Positions 8,979-22,404 are shown, numbered from the whole stretch's first letter. The stretch is 63,356 nt of DNA, filler included, from Stramenopiles sp. TOSAG23-2 (GCA_900128395.1; 7 parts of 7 records of this genome joined end to end with filler, not necessarily neighbours in it); one strand, 5' to 3'. Notes: a model not told the origin generated them from the sequence alone. Made by a program: numbers and translations.

Positions 8979-9078
8979 NNNNNNNNNNNNNNNNNNNNNN
9001 NNNNNNNNNNNNNNNNNNNNNNTTAATTAATTAANNNNNNNNNNNNNNNNNNNNNNNNNNNNNNNNNNNNNNNNNNNN
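8979..9078. other. Artificial contig linker
   Basis: 44 N + TTAATTAATTAA (stops in all six frames) + 44 N. Confidence 0.98.
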
Positions 9079-9105
9079 CTTAAAAGAAAGCAAATCAAGA
9101 AAAAG

Positions 9106-12100
9106 ATGTTGGTGAAAAAATCACCTATTAAACGAAATATTGCAAGTATGGAGAAAGGGGTCGAAGTAAATCCTGTAATAGAATCCGATATTACAAAGGA
9201 CAGCATTGATGCACTTAATCAATACCACATTATTTTTACACCATCCATATATCATAAATTCTTTATCGCTGTTATTATTTTCGCTTGTGTTTCAAATGTT
9301 AATTATTGGTTTTCCGCTGGTGAAGATGTTATTGATAGACAGGTAAACACTTTGGTATTTGATTTAAGTGTAGAATTGCAATTAAAATTAGAAGCATTTT
9401 TAAAAGTGCCAATGGGATTTGTTAAAATGATGTCATTGTTTTATCATTTAGAAATGTTACCCAGTGGTTTGTTCAATGCAGGGCGTGATAGAAACCGTGC
9501 GGATGCTAGCAACGTTGGTATGTTGAGGGCATATCCACCAGATCAGAGGCCATTTTTTTGTTATATTGGGACAGAGGAAGGTAGTTTTTTGGGAGCTAAA
9601 ATCGATCCAAAATATAAACCATTGGGAGTCTTAGTATCTGCAAAAGATAATAGTACAGGTAAAGATTTATGCACAGGTGATCCGTATACGGTATCATACT
9701 TTTTAAAAACAATAGGAAACCATTATCATATCAGAGATTCTACGTCCATTGTACCAAAGGCAAATGGCGATCTGAGTATTTATTCTGGCTACAATCCAAA
9801 GCAACGACCTTGGTATCGTAGTGGAATCAAAATGCCATATATACCTAGTTGGAGTCCTGTATATGAATTTAGTAGCGTTTATCCACCGACTATTGGTATT
9901 ACAGCTGTAATTGGATTTAATCATTCGAGGAGAAAAAATGATTTTTTTGGAGTTGCAGCGGTGGATTATACATTAAAACAATTAAATGAATTGTTGGAAA
10001 ATACTATGGAACACATTTCCGAATTGCTACGGGATGGCATTGGAACAGCTTACATTGTCGAAAACACTGGTAATATTATAGCGTTATCAAGCGGTGTTCC
10101 AATTATAAGGCAGTATAGTGAAAATGGGAATTTTAATCGTATACATGCAGCTGCATTATGTGCTAGACGCGATCAATTTCCAGATGAATGTGACCCTGCA
10201 ATCAGCGCATCATTTATGGAATTAGAAAATCGGTTGGAGGAAGGATTTTTTACGAATAATCTTTTGGAGAAGAATTATCCGGATGGCTTGGAAATGGAGA
10301 TCGGGCGTGGCAACGAGCTCGGTGTTATGATGGTACGCTTATCCGTTTTAAAAAGTGAGGAGGGATTAAACTGGGTATTAATCAGTGGGTTTGGAAAACG
10401 GAGTTTCTTAGCAAAGTTTGGCCGTTATAAAGATTTATATTTAATTTCAAGTTTAGGCATAAGTTGTTTTGCTGTATTAGTTGGATTTTTATTTTCACAT
10501 GGGAAATTGAAGCGTCTATATGGGAAGAAAAAAAGCATAGAGCAAAGAAAAAAAGATGAACTTGATAAGAAATTAGTGGATGATGAAGTAGATTTTCGTC
10601 AACGAATACGTACTCAAACAGATATAGATAGTGAAGATTTCTTCCATGAATTTCGTCGATTACTTGCACCTACTGTATTGTCAGCAAATTTAGTATGCCG
10701 TTTCAATGGAAATGAAGCAAAACCTCCGAAAATTTATCAAACATTTCGACGATTATTGTTGGATAAAAAAGAAAAGGGAAGTAGTATTTTCAAACAGCTT
10801 GATAGAAATGGCGATGGTAACATATCATATGATGAGTTTTTAATAGGTTTAAGTTCGTTAGGTTACCAGACAACAGAGGCTGAAGCAGAATTGCTTTTTG
10901 CTGCGCTAGATAAAAACAGGTCTGGTTCTATCAGCTATCAAGAAATAATTGAAGATGAAAATATCATTTTAGTAGAATCAGAAGCAACGTTGGCAGAGAA
11001 ACATAGAGCATTGGAATATCTCCTCCTTTCTGAAAACACTGAATGTAACATAATTGACTTTTTGCATTTACAACGAAACAATGATGTTCCGAGGATACTT
11101 GCGTATAAATGGTTTTACTCTACGCAATATTTTATTTTTGTGACTTGCAGCGTTATATTAAATTTATCATTGTCATTTTTAGAAGCTCCAGCGAGTAGTC
11201 AGAATTACTTTACGAAAAATAAAGACGAAGATGGGCGTATTTTAGCATTGAAATTGGTAACAATTTTATCCATATTATTATATTTGTTTGATTTAATTCT
11301 AGAAATATGGCTTTTTGGTATATATGAGCCCGATCGATCGTTAAAAGAATCTAGGAAAGTTAAAACATCTCATCGAAGAGGTAAATTTGATGACATTAAT
11401 AAAAGAAATATAACTCATCAACATACCATGTTAAATAAGATAATTGTTGGAAAAATCATTTTGATGTTGTTTTTTATAATTGATACGATTGCACCAGTAT
11501 ATTACACTGGTAGAGGTGTTTTAAGTCCAATTGACAATGAAGATACTCAATTGTTGTTTCTATTACCTTACACGGCTTTATTAAGAGCTTTTTGGCCAAT
11601 GTTACGCTTTGGTGGAATACGAACAACGCTGATCATTTTCACCAAGACTATCTATGGCGCACGGGCAGTTTTTTTCACGTTTTTTATAACATTAATGGTC
11701 TTTTCGATGATTGGTACTACCTTGTTAAGCAACAGATTTTCTTACGATACATTTGATAGTTTTCAATCCGTTTACCGATCATTTAGTACTTTATTCATAT
11801 ATATGATTACAGCAGAAAATTATCCTGATGTCGTGTATCCGCCAACTGTTTGCCATAATGAATCAATTGCTAATTCCCGTGAAGGTGGGGTCATATCAGC
11901 AGAGTGTAACGATTCTTTCATACATATTTACACTATTTTAGCAAGTTTATCTGGTACATTTTTAATCGTATCTTTGATTATAGCGGCGTTCGAGGAAGGA
12001 TTTATTAGCCATATGGAAAAAAATAGAGTTGATGAGACAATTAGATCGCGAATGGCAATCATTGCAGCATTTATTATTTTAGACAAGGACAATGGCGGTT

Positions 12101-13827
12101 CATTAGATAAATTAGAATTTCTTAATTTCTTCAACGGGACATGCAATACTGGTAGAATTTTTCATGTAGATGATGGGTTTGAATTGAGTGGAGCAGATTT
12201 TTTTCAATTATGTGAAGAACTATTGCATGAAATGAAATATGAAAAAGTGGAAGAGATGCATATGGTGGAATTTGGTGAAGCAGACAAAAAATTACATTTT
12301 GATACGTGCACATGGCATGAATTGTTTGAATATTTGCGTACATTGAACATAAATGGTTTGCCACCAGAAGAGGGAACGTTAGATCCAAGTCATCCGGGTG
12401 ATAAAGCAGTAATAGAATATTGGCGTCATCGCGGGGCAGATTACCATCAAGAACATGAACGATCGAAGAACAATGAGGCAACAGGAAAAGTTGATAATGC
12501 TGGTAATGAGGAAAATCTAGGCAACAAATTGAGTCGGTTTTACGTAGATGAAATGTATTTGATTACCGTAACATGTTTACTTTTAATGAATTGTGGCTTA
12601 GTTTGTCTATATGGTGCATCATCAAAAGATAATACAGCTTCGCTTGATACAATTAACGGTTTATTTGTAATCTTTTGGTTTATCGAGCTTGTAGTGAAAA
12701 TAATAATTGTAGGGTATGACAATTACATCCATGTAAACGATGATTTTTTCAAAGAAGTAAAAAATAAAGTAGATGGTTTTGTTGTAGTATTTTCGTTTGC
12801 ATTTTTGATTATATTAGCAACACACCGTTTGATTGTGTTGAATACTGGCTATGTCTTTGAACCATGGAAAGAATGCTTATCGGCAGCAAATTGCGAAGTA
12901 AATGATTGGGCAAGAGTAATTGTATCCTTAAACGTGTTGCGCTTGTTTGGAGAGTTTGAAATGGTGAAAAAAATTGTCTTTTGTTTCTATGTTATCGTAC
13001 CAAATTATTTCACGATAATACAATTAACGGTGCTCTTGATATATAGCTACGCAGTCTACGGCTGTATAGCATTTGGTGGGACATTCAAATATTTACACAA
13101 TTACGACATGGGGCAAGCAAATTTCAATTCTATGACTGATAGTATTATTACGTTAATTCAATTGTATGTAGGTGAAGCATGGAATAGCGTGATGCTAGCA
13201 GCATTTGATAGTATCGGCAGTGGTGCTTATCCATTCTTTTTTAGTTATGTAATTATTAGTACATTGCTATTGACAAATTTACTTGTCGGTGTTATAATAA
13301 ATGGATTTAAGGAGACTGTTAATGTGCAAAAACATGTAGAATCAAAACGTTTGGCAAAAGTTCCATCTTTACTTATTCAACGAGCATTGAAAGAGGGTAA
13401 AATATCAGAGCCAAGATTAAAATTTGAATATGGTAAAAATAATGTTATGCATATAGAGCATAATCCAGAATTATTAAGACGAATGACATATAAGGCAGAT
13501 AGAGACTTATACGAAGCCGCAAAAAACAACAAGATTTTACAGGACAAGAAAAAAATGCGCCAAATAGAATTAGAACACAATATAACGCGCGCATCTAAAT
13601 TTGAACGATTAGTTGAAAGATCGAAAGATCAATTTGGATTTTACACTAACAATAGCCGGAAAATTATCTCACGATATGCTATGGTTGTACTGGAGGAAGA
13701 AGCTGAAGATAAGAAACGTATTTTTTCGAAAGATGGTGAATATAATAAGAAAAATACTAGAACAACGACTAAAGTTGATAAATCTGTTATTAATAAAATC
13801 GATATGGAAAAATTAGGGTTAGGATGA
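9106..13827 (+). CDS. dCache sensor / EF-hand / two-pore-channel-like (2 x 6TM) fusion protein, 1573 aa; may be 5'-partial
   Basis: TM - dCache (YIGTEEGSF, YNPKQRPWY, WSPVY, GVAAVD, AYIVENTGNIIA, GLNWVLI) - TM; EF-hand pair (DRNGDGNISYDE, DKNRSGSISYQE); channel repeat I with pore LFIYMITAENYPDVVYP; linker EF-hand DKDNGGSLDKLE; repeat II with pore TLIQLYVGEAWNSVM and S6 LLTNLLVGVII. The frame is open back to the contig edge at 9079. Confidence 0.85.
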   Translation: MLVKKSPIKRNIASMEKGVEVNPVIESDITKDSIDALNQYHIIFTPSIYHKFFIAVIIFACVSNVNYWFSAGEDVIDRQVNTLVFDLSVELQLKLEAFLKVPMGFVKMMSLFYHLEMLPSGLFNAGRDRNRADASNVGMLRAYPPDQRPFFCYIGTEEGSFLGAKIDPKYKPLGVLVSAKDNSTGKDLCTGDPYTVSYFLKTIGNHYHIRDSTSIVPKANGDLSIYSGYNPKQRPWYRSGIKMPYIPSWSPVYEFSSVYPPTIGITAVIGFNHSRRKNDFFGVAAVDYTLKQLNELLENTMEHISELLRDGIGTAYIVENTGNIIALSSGVPIIRQYSENGNFNRIHAAALCARRDQFPDECDPAISASFMELENRLEEGFFTNNLLEKNYPDGLEMEIGRGNELGVMMVRLSVLKSEEGLNWVLISGFGKRSFLAKFGRYKDLYLISSLGISCFAVLVGFLFSHGKLKRLYGKKKSIEQRKKDELDKKLVDDEVDFRQRIRTQTDIDSEDFFHEFRRLLAPTVLSANLVCRFNGNEAKPPKIYQTFRRLLLDKKEKGSSIFKQLDRNGDGNISYDEFLIGLSSLGYQTTEAEAELLFAALDKNRSGSISYQEIIEDENIILVESEATLAEKHRALEYLLLSENTECNIIDFLHLQRNNDVPRILAYKWFYSTQYFIFVTCSVILNLSLSFLEAPASSQNYFTKNKDEDGRILALKLVTILSILLYLFDLILEIWLFGIYEPDRSLKESRKVKTSHRRGKFDDINKRNITHQHTMLNKIIVGKIILMLFFIIDTIAPVYYTGRGVLSPIDNEDTQLLFLLPYTALLRAFWPMLRFGGIRTTLIIFTKTIYGARAVFFTFFITLMVFSMIGTTLLSNRFSYDTFDSFQSVYRSFSTLFIYMITAENYPDVVYPPTVCHNESIANSREGGVISAECNDSFIHIYTILASLSGTFLIVSLIIAAFEEGFISHMEKNRVDETIRSRMAIIAAFIILDKDNGGSLDKLEFLNFFNGTCNTGRIFHVDDGFELSGADFFQLCEELLHEMKYEKVEEMHMVEFGEADKKLHFDTCTWHELFEYLRTLNINGLPPEEGTLDPSHPGDKAVIEYWRHRGADYHQEHERSKNNEATGKVDNAGNEENLGNKLSRFYVDEMYLITVTCLLLMNCGLVCLYGASSKDNTASLDTINGLFVIFWFIELVVKIIIVGYDNYIHVNDDFFKEVKNKVDGFVVVFSFAFLIILATHRLIVLNTGYVFEPWKECLSAANCEVNDWARVIVSLNVLRLFGEFEMVKKIVFCFYVIVPNYFTIIQLTVLLIYSYAVYGCIAFGGTFKYLHNYDMGQANFNSMTDSIITLIQLYVGEAWNSVMLAAFDSIGSGAYPFFFSYVIISTLLLTNLLVGVIINGFKETVNVQKHVESKRLAKVPSLLIQRALKEGKISEPRLKFEYGKNNVMHIEHNPELLRRMTYKADRDLYEAAKNNKILQDKKKMRQIELEHNITRASKFERLVERSKDQFGFYTNNSRKIISRYAMVVLEEEAEDKKRIFSKDGEYNKKNTRTTTKVDKSVINKIDMEKLGLG

Positions 13828-14303: not shown

Positions 14304-16727
14304 ATGCCATTATTTGAATCTGCAAAGTTTGCTAAAGAAGCACGGGATGGAAAATTAAAATTAGGTATAACTAATCAAACTGGTTCTTTATATACGGCAG
14401 AAATGGCATCTGGTACAGGGATGGACTTTGTCGTGATTGATAGCTTTCACAGGGGTTTAACGCATGATGGTATACGTAAAATGGTTACTGCTTCTCAATC
14501 TAGTAATATAGGAAATACCGTTTCCCTCGTTAGAGTTGCTGGTCCACATGATAGGGCTGGCATGCAACAAACAATGGATATTGGTGGCGACGGTGTTATA
14601 ATACCAAATGTTCGTAATAAAAAAGAAGCAATGGAAGCAGCATCAGTTCCAAAATATCCTGGAGGTGGAGGTACTCGTTCTTTATATATGCCTATAAGAG
14701 CTCAATTGAAAACTGGCATATTAATGGGCCTTGTTAGTTTTGCAAAGGTACCATTTATTGCGTGTGAAACTTCTACTGTTGAACAAATCAATAATAGTTC
14801 AGAAATTGCTTCTGTTCCTCTTGTTTCTGCATTATTTGTAGATTGTTTGCAACTTGCAGCATCCATGGATTTATTTGCAAATGTTACTGTAAACGATGGG
14901 GAAACGTACGATAAATTTGTAGAACGTCTTGCTCAAATTGCATGCAGCAATTCAAAAGTAATTCAAGCATTAGCGAATGTTGTTGAATCCGCAAAAAGAA
15001 ATAATAAAGCAGCTGGATGTTTTTCACCATCTGCAGAAATGGTACCAATGTTGAAAAAGATGGGATTTAACGTCATTTCTGTTTTTAATGATGTACGTCC
15101 AATGACACAATTTTTTGAAAATTTTAATGTATCGGAAATAGAAAAAGTCGATTTGAAAAGTATTGGGAAAGGAAAAAATTTTACACGTAAACCATTGAAA
15201 GAGATGATTTCAACAAAAAATGGTATGGAAATTCTGGCTACTAGCAAAGATGGATGCAAAAATGGGGCAATCATTTCACGTACTCATTCATGTTCAGATA
15301 TTGAAAGATTAATAGGTTCCGGCGTTGATTGCTTAGTTTTTGATTTAGTTAATCATAATTTTACATATAAACAAATGGAAGCACAAATTTTTACTGCATT
15401 AACTTTCAATATTCCATGCGTAGCACGTTGTCGACATTATGATCAGATTCAAAGATCATTGACTGCTGGATGTGATGGCATCATAGTACCTGGAAATGAT
15501 GATAAAATTAATAAATGCATGGACATGTCTGAATTTTCAAAATTACGAGGATTAGCAATGTTACCAACTACAATTTACAAACGTTCTTTTCAAACTAAGC
15601 CGGTAATATTAGTGGAAGGTAAAACACTTTTATTTGATGGTAAAACTATGAAATCTGATACATTAACTGCTTCATATGTTCAAGTTCCGGATACAGTTCC
15701 AGAGATGATTAAAAATCGTATTGAAAAACAAAATCAAAAACAAGCTAAATTTAAAGCAGATGCATTGACTGGAGGGATCTGCCAAACTGGTCTTTTCATT
15801 AACTCTGCATCTCATGAAGTTATACTTGGTTTAGGATTGCTTGGTTATACATGGATGCTAGCTGATTTTCAACATAGTCCATATGATCAAGAAATGATTG
15901 AAGGATTATATGCTGCCGCACATTTATCGGATTCAATGATATTTAGCCGAGTTGGCGGATATGATGATTCTGTTGGTATAGGTATGTGCTTGGATTTGGG
16001 ATTTGATGGTGCTTTAATTCCATACGTAAACAATGCAAAAGAAGGACAAATTGGAATTGATTTATGCAAATTAGGTAAACGAAGGATGAATTTATTCCAG
16101 GAAGAGCAAAAGTTGAGAAATAATCTAGTACTATTTCAAGTTGAAACCGCAGGTGCAATGCATGATATCGATGCCTTGTTAAAACTGGATGGTTTGGATA
16201 TTGCATTTGTTGGCCCAGGTGATTTAAGTATGAGTATTGGTTTGCATGAACGTTACTCATTGTTAAAAAGTGTGGCTGGTGATGAGGTGGGTTGGTGCCT
16301 GGATACTGTTTATTCAGTTTGTAAAAAATATGGTGTTGTTCCTGGAGGATTTAGTAGAGGTGGTCCACCAATTAAATTTATGAGCCGTGAATATCGATTT
16401 TGTACTTGGGGAAGTGATTTGTATGGATTTTATGCAGGTTTAACCGGGCTTTATACCGGGAATTATGGTATGATAGTACCAGATGTGAAAAGCTTTTACA
16501 CATACTCGTTCTCGTCATTAGGTTGGAATCCAACTAAAAATGGAATGGTAATGAATCGTGGACAAACCAGGAATCTATTAATGAACCATATGGTTCCACA
16601 TATATTCAAACATAGTGGTTCACGTGGTAAACGATATGATATATCTATGCCTGATCAATTTTTCTCGGATATCGGAAAGCCAAATAATAACAAAGGTACT
16701 GGTAGTGGTGGTTGTGTGGTGATGTAA
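14304..16727 (+). CDS. Tandem-triplicated HpcH/HpaI-family (class II pyruvate aldolase-like) protein with C-terminal CaaX
   Basis: Three copies of the family pattern (DFVVIDSFH..LVRV..MDIGGDGVIIP; DCLVFDLVNH..ARC..LTAGCDGIIVP; WMLADFQHSP..SRV..LDLGFDGALIP..QVET..FVGPGDLSMSIG); ends GGCVVM. Confidence 0.85.
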   Translation: MPLFESAKFAKEARDGKLKLGITNQTGSLYTAEMASGTGMDFVVIDSFHRGLTHDGIRKMVTASQSSNIGNTVSLVRVAGPHDRAGMQQTMDIGGDGVIIPNVRNKKEAMEAASVPKYPGGGGTRSLYMPIRAQLKTGILMGLVSFAKVPFIACETSTVEQINNSSEIASVPLVSALFVDCLQLAASMDLFANVTVNDGETYDKFVERLAQIACSNSKVIQALANVVESAKRNNKAAGCFSPSAEMVPMLKKMGFNVISVFNDVRPMTQFFENFNVSEIEKVDLKSIGKGKNFTRKPLKEMISTKNGMEILATSKDGCKNGAIISRTHSCSDIERLIGSGVDCLVFDLVNHNFTYKQMEAQIFTALTFNIPCVARCRHYDQIQRSLTAGCDGIIVPGNDDKINKCMDMSEFSKLRGLAMLPTTIYKRSFQTKPVILVEGKTLLFDGKTMKSDTLTASYVQVPDTVPEMIKNRIEKQNQKQAKFKADALTGGICQTGLFINSASHEVILGLGLLGYTWMLADFQHSPYDQEMIEGLYAAAHLSDSMIFSRVGGYDDSVGIGMCLDLGFDGALIPYVNNAKEGQIGIDLCKLGKRRMNLFQEEQKLRNNLVLFQVETAGAMHDIDALLKLDGLDIAFVGPGDLSMSIGLHERYSLLKSVAGDEVGWCLDTVYSVCKKYGVVPGGFSRGGPPIKFMSREYRFCTWGSDLYGFYAGLTGLYTGNYGMIVPDVKSFYTYSFSSLGWNPTKNGMVMNRGQTRNLLMNHMVPHIFKHSGSRGKRYDISMPDQFFSDIGKPNNNKGTGSGGCVVM

Positions 16728-18747: not shown

Positions 18748-21700
18748 ATGGCGAAAAAGTCTGGCGAGAATTCTATTACTGATAAAAATAATGTAAAAAA
18801 AGAGAATGATAGTAGTGACAATGTTGAAAAAAAGAAGAGCGAAAAGGCTGAATCAGTAACTTCAAAAGCAAAACAAAAAATTGTTGGATTTAGTACCAAC
18901 TCTGTATTTAAGAAAAAAGAGAAAAAGACAACGAAAGAAAATGGTGAAGATGTGAAATCACCAGCAGCTCCTAAAGAAAAGGTATATCGTAAATCGACAT
19001 TTGAGCTGTCAGAAAAAGATTTTGAAATATTTGGAACAGATAAGAAAATAGAAAAAAAACTTGAACAATTAAATGATAAACTAGGCGGGATAGAAAAAAT
19101 CATGAAATTATTGAAAATAGATGAACGTAATGGTATGTGTTCACCAAAGGAGGAGAAATACGCTGCCAAAGCTAAGAAAAAGCTAGATATTGCTATTGAA
19201 TATCGGAAATCGTTTGGTGACAATAAATTACCAAATATACCACCTAATCGTTTATTGCATTTCATCATAGAAGGTTTTGATGATATAACTTTATTAATAT
19301 TATTATTTGCATCTGTTTTATCATTTATTATTGGATTGGCTGATGATCCCATAAATGGATGGAGCGAAGGATTTTCAATTGTATTATCTATCGTATTTGT
19401 CTCTTCCATATCAGGTATGATAGAATATTATAAAGATCAAAGTTTAAATGCAATTGATAAAAAAAGTAATACATCATATTCTACAATAATTCGTGATGGT
19501 AATCATATGCATATTAAAAGTGAAGATCTTGTTGTTGGTGATTTAATTGTATTGGATGTAGGGAACCGTGTCCCATGCGATTGCTTAATAGTTGATGACG
19601 ATATATCATTATATACACAAGATTTTACCAATAGTGCTGGTGGTAGAAGCACAAGTCCAATGTTAATAAATGATAAAGAGAAAAATCCGTTTATTCTTTC
19701 CGGGTACGATATCGTTAAAGGAACATGTAGAGCTGTTGCAATTTCCGTTGGTGAAAATAGTCGGCAATATAAAGAAATTGTAAAGCGTAATTTAGAAACT
19801 ACAACAGATACTGCATTGCAAGGTAGACTTCAAGGCGTTGCAAATTACGTGACATACACAGGCATTTTTTTCGCGATAGTAATTTTTATTGTGATTGCTG
19901 CAACGTTTGAAGATGCAACGTATCGTGAAGGTCGTAGTGATGCAAGATATTTCATCGATGCGATTGTCCTTGCAGCAACTATTGTAGTCGTTGCAATTCC
20001 AGAAGGTTTGCCAATGACCGTGGCGATATCATTGGGATTTAGAGCAAACACGATTTTAGAACAAAATTTACTAATACGTAAAGTAAGTGGGAATGAAAAC
20101 ATGGGATATGTTACTGATATTTTGCCAAATAAAACTGGTACATTTACAAAAAACGACATGGTATGTTCAGCTGGTTGGTTTGCCGATTTATATTACAGTA
20201 CAAGTGATGGAATACCAAATGGTAAAAAAAAGTTTGAAAAATATCTTTATGATATTATACGAGAAAATATTGCACAAAATTCATCTACGACAGTTACATA
20301 TCACAAGAAAGTAATAAAGAAACAATCCATGGCTGCTAAAAGTGCAGCGTTTTTAGGTAAAATGATGGGCAGCGGGGAAAAAAACAAAGATAAAAAAGCT
20401 GAAAGTGGTAAACCAGAAGCTGAGCGTGATGGTGGTATGGACGTTCAAATATTTGGCACACAAACAGAAGCTGCTTTGATTCGAATGATGGTTGACAAAA
20501 TGGGTTGTGCAAAAGATTTTTTCATATATGAACGTAAAGTTAATGTGAGGAAATGCTTTTATACATTTACACCTAGTGCCAGGATAAGTGCAGCAGTTGT
20601 GGAGAAAAAAACAAATGGCAACGGGTATCGGTTATATGTAAAAGGTGCTGCGGAAACAGTTGTCAAACTATGTTTTAAATATCTAGATCATCGTGCTGAA
20701 ATGCAAGATTTAGATTATAAAAAGAAACAATATATTATCAACGATTTGATTGTTAAAATGGGAAGAGCACAATTACGACCGATTGCATTAGCTCATTGTG
20801 ATTTTGATGAAATAACAAAATTGAAATTGCCAACAAATCTAAAACAGATAGATTGGATATTTAAACAGAAATTAGTATTAGATGCTATCGTAGGGATCAA
20901 AGATCCATTACGTGATGGCATATCAGATGCAGTATTAAAATGTCAAAAAGCTGGAATTAAAATACGCATGGTTACCGGGGAACATATTGACACTGCACGT
21001 GCTATATGTACTCGTTTAAATATATTAAGCGATGAGAAGAATGCATATCTAGCGAGTGATTTAGAACGTTTATCATTGAGCCAAATTGACAAAATTTTAC
21101 CTTCCATTGAAATTATTGCACGATGTCCACCTGAATTTAAAAAAGGTTTTGTAAGCCGATTAAATGGCAAAGCATTGCCAAGAAATAAAAAAGAATGGTG
21201 TAAATTACATAACATCAAAGATACGGAATGGGATCAACAAGCATCACGCTTGTTGCCTGGATATCACGATGAATGGTATAATCATCATGTTCGTGATAGT
21301 AACATCGTTGGCGTTGTTGGAAAACATCCGGAAGATATTTTGACTTTAAGTGTTGGTAACATTGGCCTTGCGCTTGCCAAAAGTTCAACAACTGGAGCTA
21401 AATTATCATCAGATGTTTCAGCCATGGATGATAGCTTTTCAACCATTGTGAAAAGTGTTACATGGGGAAGAGCTTTGCAAGAAAATGTTCGAAGTTTTTT
21501 GCAATTTCAATTGACTACAAATTTCGTCGTATTGTCCTTCTCATTAATTATTGCATTGCATGGAGAGCAAGTTCCATTCAATGCGGTTATGTTATTATGG
21601 ACGAATTTAATTATGGATACATTGGCTGCAGTAGCATTTGGCACGGAAGCACCGTTTCACATGTCAATGGAACGTTTGCCATATCGACGTGATGCTGATT

Positions 21701-22404
21701 TAATCAATAAAGAAATGCGAAAAAATATTATTGTTCAAGGTTCATTCCAATTGCTTTTGTTAATCATATTGTATTTCGACGGTCACACAATGTTTCAAAA
21801 AACTGATGGAACGTTTATTAATAAAGGCAGCGTATGTATAAAGAACTTTACAAATACTGATGATGTATCCCCAACTCCAAGTAGTGCACCGGTGATATGC
21901 TCTGAATACGATTACACACATTATACCATCGTGTTTAATACATTTATATTCCAGCAAATATTTAACTTTTTCAATGCTCGTAGGTTAGAAGCTGATGCAA
22001 AATCTGTATGCCAAGGATTTCAGCGAAATTGGACGTTTTTAGGAACAATTTTTTTCATTGTAATATTTCAATATTTTCTTGTTAATTTTGCAAGTACCTT
22101 GTTGAAAACTAGTAATGCTTTAACAATCGGGCATTGGATTGCGTGTTGTTTAATGGCAATGTTTACTGTATTGCCAGTCGGTTTTTTATTACGTTATTTA
22201 AATAATACGAAAAGCGATGATATGAAAACGTTTAGTGGATATCCAGGTTTAGTACCTGTTGTGGAAGAGGAAGAAGAGGAAGATGGTGGAGCGAAAGAAC
22301 CAAATTCCCCAACATCATTAATGGAGAAAGGTAAATTATCAAAAGGTAAAAGTACACCGACTTCGCCATCGAAAAAAAAGTCGTCAAAGTATGTTGTAAA
22401 ATAA
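18748..22404 (+). CDS. P2B (PMCA/ACA-type) Ca2+-ATPase-like protein with degenerate catalytic motifs
   Basis: DITLLILL, GWSEG, VVAIPEGLP, YVKGAAE, VGIKDPLR, AGIKIRMVTG, WGR...FLQFQLT, LLWTNLIMDTLAA, FNTFIFQQIFNFFNAR are PMCA hallmarks; DKTGT reads NKTGT. Confidence 0.9.
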   Translation: MAKKSGENSITDKNNVKKENDSSDNVEKKKSEKAESVTSKAKQKIVGFSTNSVFKKKEKKTTKENGEDVKSPAAPKEKVYRKSTFELSEKDFEIFGTDKKIEKKLEQLNDKLGGIEKIMKLLKIDERNGMCSPKEEKYAAKAKKKLDIAIEYRKSFGDNKLPNIPPNRLLHFIIEGFDDITLLILLFASVLSFIIGLADDPINGWSEGFSIVLSIVFVSSISGMIEYYKDQSLNAIDKKSNTSYSTIIRDGNHMHIKSEDLVVGDLIVLDVGNRVPCDCLIVDDDISLYTQDFTNSAGGRSTSPMLINDKEKNPFILSGYDIVKGTCRAVAISVGENSRQYKEIVKRNLETTTDTALQGRLQGVANYVTYTGIFFAIVIFIVIAATFEDATYREGRSDARYFIDAIVLAATIVVVAIPEGLPMTVAISLGFRANTILEQNLLIRKVSGNENMGYVTDILPNKTGTFTKNDMVCSAGWFADLYYSTSDGIPNGKKKFEKYLYDIIRENIAQNSSTTVTYHKKVIKKQSMAAKSAAFLGKMMGSGEKNKDKKAESGKPEAERDGGMDVQIFGTQTEAALIRMMVDKMGCAKDFFIYERKVNVRKCFYTFTPSARISAAVVEKKTNGNGYRLYVKGAAETVVKLCFKYLDHRAEMQDLDYKKKQYIINDLIVKMGRAQLRPIALAHCDFDEITKLKLPTNLKQIDWIFKQKLVLDAIVGIKDPLRDGISDAVLKCQKAGIKIRMVTGEHIDTARAICTRLNILSDEKNAYLASDLERLSLSQIDKILPSIEIIARCPPEFKKGFVSRLNGKALPRNKKEWCKLHNIKDTEWDQQASRLLPGYHDEWYNHHVRDSNIVGVVGKHPEDILTLSVGNIGLALAKSSTTGAKLSSDVSAMDDSFSTIVKSVTWGRALQENVRSFLQFQLTTNFVVLSFSLIIALHGEQVPFNAVMLLWTNLIMDTLAAVAFGTEAPFHMSMERLPYRRDADLINKEMRKNIIVQGSFQLLLLIILYFDGHTMFQKTDGTFINKGSVCIKNFTNTDDVSPTPSSAPVICSEYDYTHYTIVFNTFIFQQIFNFFNARRLEADAKSVCQGFQRNWTFLGTIFFIVIFQYFLVNFASTLLKTSNALTIGHWIACCLMAMFTVLPVGFLLRYLNNTKSDDMKTFSGYPGLVPVVEEEEEEDGGAKEPNSPTSLMEKGKLSKGKSTPTSPSKKKSSKYVVK

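Follow-up and report, generated by a model that had tools for sequence, protein, structure and literature searches.

A predicted two-repeat cation channel of a stramenopile with Cav-like glutamates in both pore loops, charge-poor S4 segments and a fused Cache-like domain

We analyzed a predicted cation-channel gene in a 63,356-nucleotide stretch of DNA (filler included; hereafter the window) from Stramenopiles sp. TOSAG23-2 (GCA_900128395.1), in which seven parts of seven records of this genome are joined end to end with filler and are not necessarily neighbours in it. The open reading frame (ORF) runs from 9106 to 13827 on the plus strand, counted from the first letter of the window, and its translation gives a protein of 1573 aa (P0001). 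The 5′ end of the ORF is interrupted by runs of N at about 8979–9079, which hide the true start of the gene; P0002 (ENA), which is 99% identical to P0001, extends 82 residues further toward the N-terminus. Two such runs, with a short AT-rich stretch between them, lie directly upstream of the first ATG, and the in-frame LKRKQIKKK that precedes this ATG matches P0002.

From its N-terminus, the protein is laid out as a transmembrane (TM) helix, a dCache-like ectodomain, a second TM helix, a cytosolic EF-hand pair, repeat I, a linker with an EF-hand-like loop, and repeat II. Hydropathy predicted the TM helices at residues ~47–68 (9244–9309) and ~444–466 (10435–10503), with an ectodomain of about 375 residues between them and two sets of S1–S6 helices after them. 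Pfam Ion_trans (PF00520) matched two stretches at 122.4 bits (cut-off 25), placing the protein in the voltage-gated-like ion channel superfamily. Repeat I (IS1–IS6, residues ~676–962, 11131–11991) was delimited from Ion_trans, hydropathy and model helices, and repeat II (IIS1–IIS6, residues ~1150–1398, 12553–13299) from hydropathy and the best Ion_trans stretch (1151–1404). Unlike the four-domain Cav, Nav and NALCN channels, P0001 has two repeats and then a stop.

Each of the two pore loops carries a Glu in its filter. The first-pass annotation of this DNA had described these residues as Cav-like, in the motifs ITAENYPDV and YVGEAW, and both motifs are present in the DNA and its translation where it had placed them: ITAENYPDV at 11806–11832 (residues 901–909), with E904 encoded by GAA at 11815–11817, and YVGEAW at 13165–13182 (residues 1354–1359), with E1357 encoded by GAA at 13174–13176. 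Translation, family alignments and alignments to Cav delimited the filters as T-A-E-N-Y-P-D (residues 902–908, 11809–11829) and V-G-E-A-W-N-S (residues 1355–1361, 13168–13188). HMMER aligned VGEAWNSVM of pore II with TGEDWNSVM of Cav1.2 domain II, and also with domains I and IV; in the E1357 column, the named Cav1 and Cav2 proteins have E, E, E, E across their four domains. Repeat I alone, as a single sequence, matched no PDB channel at E ≤ 10 and was matched only as a 15-sequence family profile, in which ttAENyPdvVy fell on ltGEDWnsvmy of Cav1.x domain II and on stFEGWPallY of domain III, so that the pore I Glu lay on the filter Glu and the Tyr on the filter Trp. When the profiles of repeats I and II (36 sequences each) were compared by hhalign, they matched with a probability of 99.2%, TAENY on VGEAW and E on E. 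In both loops (TAENY and VGEAW) the Glu takes position 3 of the Cav/Nav T-x-E-x-W motif, and pore I adds an Asp at position 7 (D908), as in Cav domain I. The possibility that the two Glu lie outside the filter was checked with the Cav alignments; both fall within it, with E904 and E1357 on the Cav filter Glu and on each other, and the Cav-like assignment stands.

Pore residues were counted in 159 proteins scanned with the family hidden Markov model (HMM), 25 of them four-domain channels; the relatives were chosen by similarity to P0001 and are not independent samples. Among the 78 relatives with an aligned pore I, the E904 column held E in 64, D in 11, S in 2 and A in 1. Both pores were aligned in 57 relatives, and 42 of these were acidic in both (E/E 36, D/E 5, E/D 1), while in the remaining 15 at least one pore showed a gap or an uncharged residue (pore I: S or A; pore II: A, P, Q, S, V, N, F or a gap). 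In a further 40 proteins only pore II was aligned, with E in 29 cases and D in 2. The loop that follows pore I (11851–11907) contains two nearly invariant Cys, C916 and C934, together with an N-x-S site at N918, which suggests an extracytosolic turret that would be disulfide-bonded and glycosylated.

The S4 segments had been described as charge-poor, with about two Arg and no RxxRxxR run, and this description held when charges were counted against four-domain controls. In S4 of repeat I (residues 819–840, 11560–11625), ALLRAFWPMLR (824–834, 11575–11607) contains R827 and R834 and is followed by R839. R827 aligned with the LRP of Cav domain I/III S4, and its column held R in 66 of 69 family segments, mostly followed by Pro; the R834 column was basic in 44 of 69 and the R839 column held R in 45 of 69. 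S4 of repeat II (residues 1267–1289, 12904–12972) was set in the register D1267, R1270, V1273, N1276, R1279, G1282, E1285, K1288 by alignments that included Cav1.2 domain III S4; within it, WARVIVSLNVLRLF (1268–1281, 12907–12948) contains R1270 and R1279 and is followed by K1288 and K1289. RxxR spacing occurs in neither segment. Across the family, the register columns 1270, 1273, 1276 and 1279 held R (79/92), a hydrophobic residue, P (68) or N (7), and R (91/92), respectively. Two of these four columns were basic in 79 of the 92 segments and one in 13, and three or four in none, whereas in four-domain channels the same columns had four basic residues in 32 of 40 segments and three in the other 8. 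Seven of ten aligned S4 segments of named Cavs read RRRR or RRRK, and the other three keep three basic residues. The mid-S4-II position N1276 (12931–12933), at which P0001's subgroup has Asn and most of the family has Pro, places a helix-breaker at a gating-charge position.

AtTPC1 senses voltage through three Arg, R537, R540 and R543, in repeat II only, its first voltage-sensing domain (VSD) being voltage-insensitive (10.1101/181578). The corresponding run of three Arg at three-residue spacing is missing from repeat II of P0001, which has R1270 and R1279, nine residues apart, with V and N between. As judged from these alignments, absence of voltage gating is plausible, and the filter Glu and the S4 depletion are marks of a wide protist two-repeat family, not quirks of one gene.

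Candidate regulatory domains precede and separate the repeats. The EF-hand pair (residues 561–615, 10786–10950) was called by Pfam EF-hand_7 at 54.9 bits (cut-off 30) and has canonical 12-residue loops at 566–577 and 602–613. In the linker after IS6, an EF-hand-like loop, DKDNGGSLDKLE (residues 993–1004, 12082–12117), was recognized by conservation, with D993, D995, L1000 and E1004 invariant in 10 sequences, and was not called by Pfam; the activating EF-hands of plant TPC1 lie between the repeats, at the same position (PMC12839299). Since S1 of such channels begins from the cytosol, the EF-hands would be cytosolic and the Cache-like domain extracytosolic.

The dCache-like sensor domain (residues ~70–443, 9313–10434) was assigned from a sub-threshold dCache_1 match and an MCP-like_PDC_1 match of P0001 itself, from relatives that pass the cut-offs and from a weak match to PctA. 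P0048 and P0060 exceed the dCache_1 cut-off with 48.2 and 49.8 bits, and a Pfam scan of 21 long relatives returned either dCache_1 or MCP-like_PDC_1 (E ≤ 1e-4) for 13, of which 6 pass a curated cut-off. Two of the same 21 have a VWA domain and one a cNMP-binding domain; these lie upstream of the two-repeat pore (P0014, VWA 294–459; P0023, VWA 27–126; P0021, cNMP_binding 1728–1811). The amino-acid-binding motif dCache_1AA, YxxxxRxWY ... Y[x about 27–34]D (Gumerov et al. 2022, PMC8915833), was located by regular expression and is complete in P0001, as Y229-x4-R234-x-W236-Y237 ... Y253-x33-D287 (9790–9966). The best PDB sequence match of the ectodomain, the ligand-binding domain of PctA, was weak (E 0.13), and exactly these motif residues were aligned in it. 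Among family-type proteins of at least 1400 aa, 22 of 53 (several of them near-identical cluster mates) have the complete motif, as against 0 of 33 four-domain channels. All eukaryotic dCache_1 proteins are said to carry a VWA insertion (PMC8915833); the Cache-like domain of P0001 lacks it and departs from this rule. The first-pass annotation had named a fused Cache domain and EF-hands: the latter were borne out by Pfam, and the Cache reading is backed by the Pfam hits of the relatives and by the full motif.

An exhaustive search returned 1069 proteins at E ≤ 1e-3, of which 217 also reached E ≤ 1e-10 and 34 reached E ≤ 1e-30. The channel usually lies at the C-terminal end of proteins of 1000–2900 aa with Cache/PDC, VWA or cNMP sensor domains, and the named relatives come from Rhodelphis marinus, a picozoan, Paulinella micropora and Nonionella stella (Rhizaria, Rhodelphis, Picozoa). 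One member, P0121 (1405 aa), is a four-domain protein whose third pore loop has the family's TGDNYPDV, possibly through tandem duplication of the two-repeat type.

In a Foldseek search with an AlphaFold2 (AF2) monomer model of the channel part (mean pLDDT 64.6), ranks 1–17 were the two-pore channels (TPCs) HsTPC2, AtTPC1 and MmTPC1, with E from 1e-13 to 7e-9 and TM-scores by target of 0.54–0.65, followed by NALCN, Cav and Nav. According to the model, P0001 thus shares two tandem 6TM repeats and a TPC-like fold with plant TPC1 and animal TPC1–3, its best fold match. The single-sequence PDB search put Cav first (E 1.3e-10), and no TPC appeared among the best 60 of 95 PDB sequence matches. In the profile search, Cav1.3 was matched at 1.6e-42 over seven stretches, and AtTPC1 (7e-26) and HsTPC2 (4e-22) over one colinear stretch each. 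No canonical TPC or named TPCR sequence was found in the homologue searches, including the best 150 of the 1069 matches. With plant TPC1 the protein also shares a Ca2+-binding-type loop in the inter-repeat linker, and the first VSD of AtTPC1 is voltage-insensitive. The filters differ: TPC filters had been called uncharged in the first-pass annotation, in agreement with the Asn reported for them (10.1101/181578, PMC11844439, PMC11085791). In hTPC2 these are N273/N274 and V652-N653-N654, AtTPC1 having M and G at the V652 and N653 positions (same sources), whereas P0001 has Glu in both loops. The N-terminal Cache ectodomain and EF-hand pair are extra in P0001 relative to TPCs.

Likeness to Cav α1 extends from the filter Glu column, common to all four Cav domains, to the pore II motif GEAWNS, which is close to GEDWNS of domain II and GEAW of domain IV. 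Cav α1 has four repeats with three or four S4 charges each, whereas P0001 has two repeats with one or two. Cav α2δ also contains a dCache_1 domain with the same amino-acid motif (PMC8915833); in P0001, the Cache domain is fused in cis and has no VWA interruption. VWA, which together with Cache builds up the Cav α2δ subunit, occurs in some family members. Bacterial Nav and Cav channels (NaChBac, NavAb, CavAb, CavMr) share the T-x-E-x-W filter, which in them forms a ring of four Glu, and matched repeat II at E 1e-5 to 1e-3; unlike P0001, they are single-domain tetramers with a fully charged S4. We also considered diatom TPCL, another divergent two-repeat channel of protists, whose filter II likewise contains an acidic residue (PMC11085791), and rejected identity with it, since TPCL is described as having a VND filter II and no EF-hands and as forming a diatom clade, whereas P0001 has VGEAW, EF-hands and a Cache domain.

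Each repeat was also compared with the individual domains of four-domain channels. The S4–S5 segment of repeat I, which carries the LRP signature seen in domains I and III, had its matches on domain I (9) and domain III (4) and on no other domain, some of these at very low scores; full-length matches of repeat II in 21 four-domain proteins fell on domain II (11), IV (17), III (2) and I (0). By these alignments, either repeat lines up colinearly with one half of a four-domain channel. The first-pass annotation had proposed a phylogeny of each repeat, and we built a domain tree (128 rows, 251 columns, LG+G4, quick search) from 36 family proteins with two repeats each, 9 near-identical cluster mates having been dropped from the 45 that passed coverage filters, and from 14 of the 21 four-domain proteins with four domains each. 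Each of the six groups formed one side of a branch, and domains were paired as D1+D3 (support 92) and D2+D4 (support 95). The tree separated the groups and paired the domains but left the attachment of the repeats at a support of only 18. Constrained trees with D1+D3+repeat I and with D1+D3+repeat II exceeded the free quick tree by log-likelihoods of 16.7 and 10.0; joining repeat I with D1/D3 was better by 6.7 units, and neither arrangement was rejected.

Two-domain channels of unicellular eukaryotes with a Cav-like putative filter have been described as the TPCR clade (Rahman et al. 2014, Sci Signal 7:ra109) and proposed to resemble the two-domain ancestor of Cav and Nav (PMC4278181, PMC12839299). 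A Cav-like filter in two-domain protist channels is thus already known, a precedent that the first-pass annotation had missed. The P0001 family agrees with this description, and the gene is at least a close analogue of TPCR, the comparison with that clade being by description and not by TPCR sequences. The TPCR name was given to channels of opisthokont relatives and of an apusomonad (PMC8490419), whereas the relatives of P0001 are from Rhizaria, Rhodelphis and Picozoa, and the portions of PMC12839299 and PMC4278181 available mention no Cache fusion for TPCR. A 2026 review calls it unclear whether TPCR domains contain bona fide VSDs (PMC12839299); the P0001 family offers a testable answer, with both S4s depleted and Pro or Asn in the middle of S4-II. 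Neither the S4 depletion of such channels nor a Cache-fused two-repeat channel was found described in the main-text literature, supplements (such as Dataset S3 of PMC8915833) lying outside the search, and Pozdnyakov et al. 2018 (PMC5824947) make no mention of two-domain channels, TPC or Cache. What is apparently new is that S4 is depleted throughout the family and that a Cache domain with the amino-acid-binding motif is fused to the channel.

The gene stretch occurs in marine metagenomes and in polyA/oligo-dT RNA libraries, being present in 20 of 24 rows (6 of these RNA) from 12 studies. RNA-library contigs from four runs of two studies span both pore loops colinearly, with no joints or indels, which does not by itself prove transcription. 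Both Glu codons are unchanged in these polyA/oligo-dT marine contigs. They differ from the gene at 40 listed positions, 16 synonymous and 24 non-synonymous, and the lone difference within a filter motif, at G1356, is synonymous. A contig of run X16 has G for A at position 11584, 31 letters from the contig end and at a depth of 5.5, which would change R827, the conserved S4-I Arg, to Gly in a related strain or could be an error.

From the TPC-like fold we infer assembly as a dimer with an EEEE ring. Two subunits would form a pseudo-tetramer I-II-I-II whose filter combines four Glu with two Asp, a divalent-binding pore that is probably Ca2+-permeable and Ca2+-preferring. With so few S4 charges, the VSD-like domains would serve mainly as structural or coupling modules. 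Cytosolic Ca2+ acting on the EF-hands would drive opening, and so would an extracytosolic ligand, probably an amino acid, that binds the Cache domain; from there the signal may pass through the TM helix that follows this domain. On balance we hold it rather probable that P0001 is such a two-repeat (2 × 6TM) channel, with a Ca2+-preferring pore and little voltage sensing, opened by cytosolic Ca2+ and by an extracytosolic ligand.

Several observations weigh against this interpretation. P0004 and P0005, close relatives at 46–47% identity, read VGPAW, with Pro for the pore II Glu, and in these sequences the pore II Glu is not obligatory within the Cache-fused subgroup. In P0001 itself, dCache_1 stays below threshold (23.7 bits, cut-off 45), and MCP-like_PDC_1 scores 18.6 bits. 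The AF2 model has both Glu two residues past the end of the first pore helix, which was given no weight because pLDDT is below 50 over the pore I loop, and no geometry was taken from it. Canonical bacterial Nav channels, with a TLESW filter and four Glu, are Na+-selective, and P0001 might likewise have a non-selective or Na+-preferring cation pore despite its four Glu, which we regard as possible but doubtful. Selectivity does not depend on negative charge alone: the presence of Gly at position 4 of the filter is important, one channel with more filter Asp prefers Na+, and CavMr needs the position-4 Gly (PMC7041947). Position 4 in P0001 is N in pore I and A in pore II, not Gly, and pore I has Tyr for the filter Trp. 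The filter of AtTPC1 is asymmetric, about 14 Å across P1–P1′ and about 5 Å across P2–P2′ (10.1101/181578); in a filter of that type the pore I Glu may sit further from the axis, and the four Glu may not form one ring. A Na+-preferring or non-selective pore is, however, at odds with the net charge of the two filters TAENYPD and VGEAWNS, −6 per presumed dimer (four Glu, two Asp), which is inside the range of 5–7 given for the net negative charge of mammalian Cav filters (PMC7041947), with the nearly Cav domain II/IV motif GEAWNS, and with the position-7 Asp in pore I, as in Cav domain I. Given the insufficiency of charge alone, the N and A at position 4 and the asymmetry of the AtTPC1 filter, a preference for Ca2+ is likely but not secure.

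The little voltage sensing that we favour would also be wrong if P0001 were still a voltage-gated Ca2+ channel in which two Arg and a Lys of S4-II, together with acidic S2 and S3 residues, suffice for gating, and the Cache domain and EF-hands only modulate it. R1270, R1279 and K1288 do stand in a three-residue register, E1194 (IIS2) and D1213 (IIS3) are invariant in 10 sequences, and no more than three charges in a single VSD suffice for the gating of AtTPC1 (10.1101/181578), so that some voltage sensitivity is possible. Yet all 92 family segments have a hydrophobic residue and then Pro/Asn in the middle of the register, and an Arg that stepped to the next site would be expected to bring into the transfer centre a residue that is uncharged or a Pro that breaks the helix; in S4-I a single Arg is conserved, and TPC2 is described as largely voltage-insensitive (PMC11844439). 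We consider this alternative unlikely. An ordinary TPC, endolysosomal or vacuolar, of the Asn-filter type and gated by voltage, NAADP or PI(3,5)P2, would account for TPCs being the best match of the modelled structure, for protein atlas features nearest to plant TPC1 clusters (score 0.95) and for the JGI label of the relative P0074, 'two pore calcium channel protein, plant'. It fits poorly with Glu in both filters where TPCs have Asn, with a IIS4 that lacks the three consecutive Arg of AtTPC1, with a PDB sequence search that ranks Cav first and has no TPC in the 60 best matches, and with the N-terminal Cache and EF-hand region, which is not part of TPCs as the literature available to us describes them, and is very improbable. 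That the gene is an artefact, namely a fragment of a four-domain gene, a pseudogene or a mis-assembly, is hardly credible: the N runs do interrupt its 5′ end, but the 4.7 kb frame is open up to a stop codon after a 170-residue tail beyond repeat II and is followed by an unrelated HpcH/HpaI-type ORF, the two-repeat layout is common to the relatives, the RNA-library contigs run through it colinearly, and a 99% identical protein represents 77 member sequences.

The usual fusion of such pores to extracellular sensor domains suggests that abundant marine protists admit Ca2+ through channels gated by ligand and by Ca2+, and the family offers a natural experiment on the behaviour of a four-Glu filter in a two-fold symmetric pore. 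Two-domain channels with a Cav-like filter have apparently not been characterised in the literature, as far as the sources available in part tell. More tentatively, and with a likelihood that we put well below even, the P0001 family may be a new class of ionotropic chemoreceptors in which an external amino acid on the covalently fused dCache domain would directly open Ca2+ entry in marine protists through a Cav-like two-repeat pore that has given up voltage sensing. Such a class may preserve, within a single chain, an ancient partnership of Cache/VWA ectodomains with a Cav-type pore that predates four-domain channels and a separate α2δ.

Downstream of the channel gene lie an 807-aa protein with repeated HpcH/HpaI aldolase-type domains (14304–16727), encoded by the next ORF, and a P-type cation ATPase (18748–22404); a functional link of either to the channel is not evident. 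The window is AT-rich (GC ~0.28–0.41) and contains long intron-free eukaryotic genes, among them those for exportin-5, SET and PX/PH proteins, a P-type ATPase and an ABC transporter.

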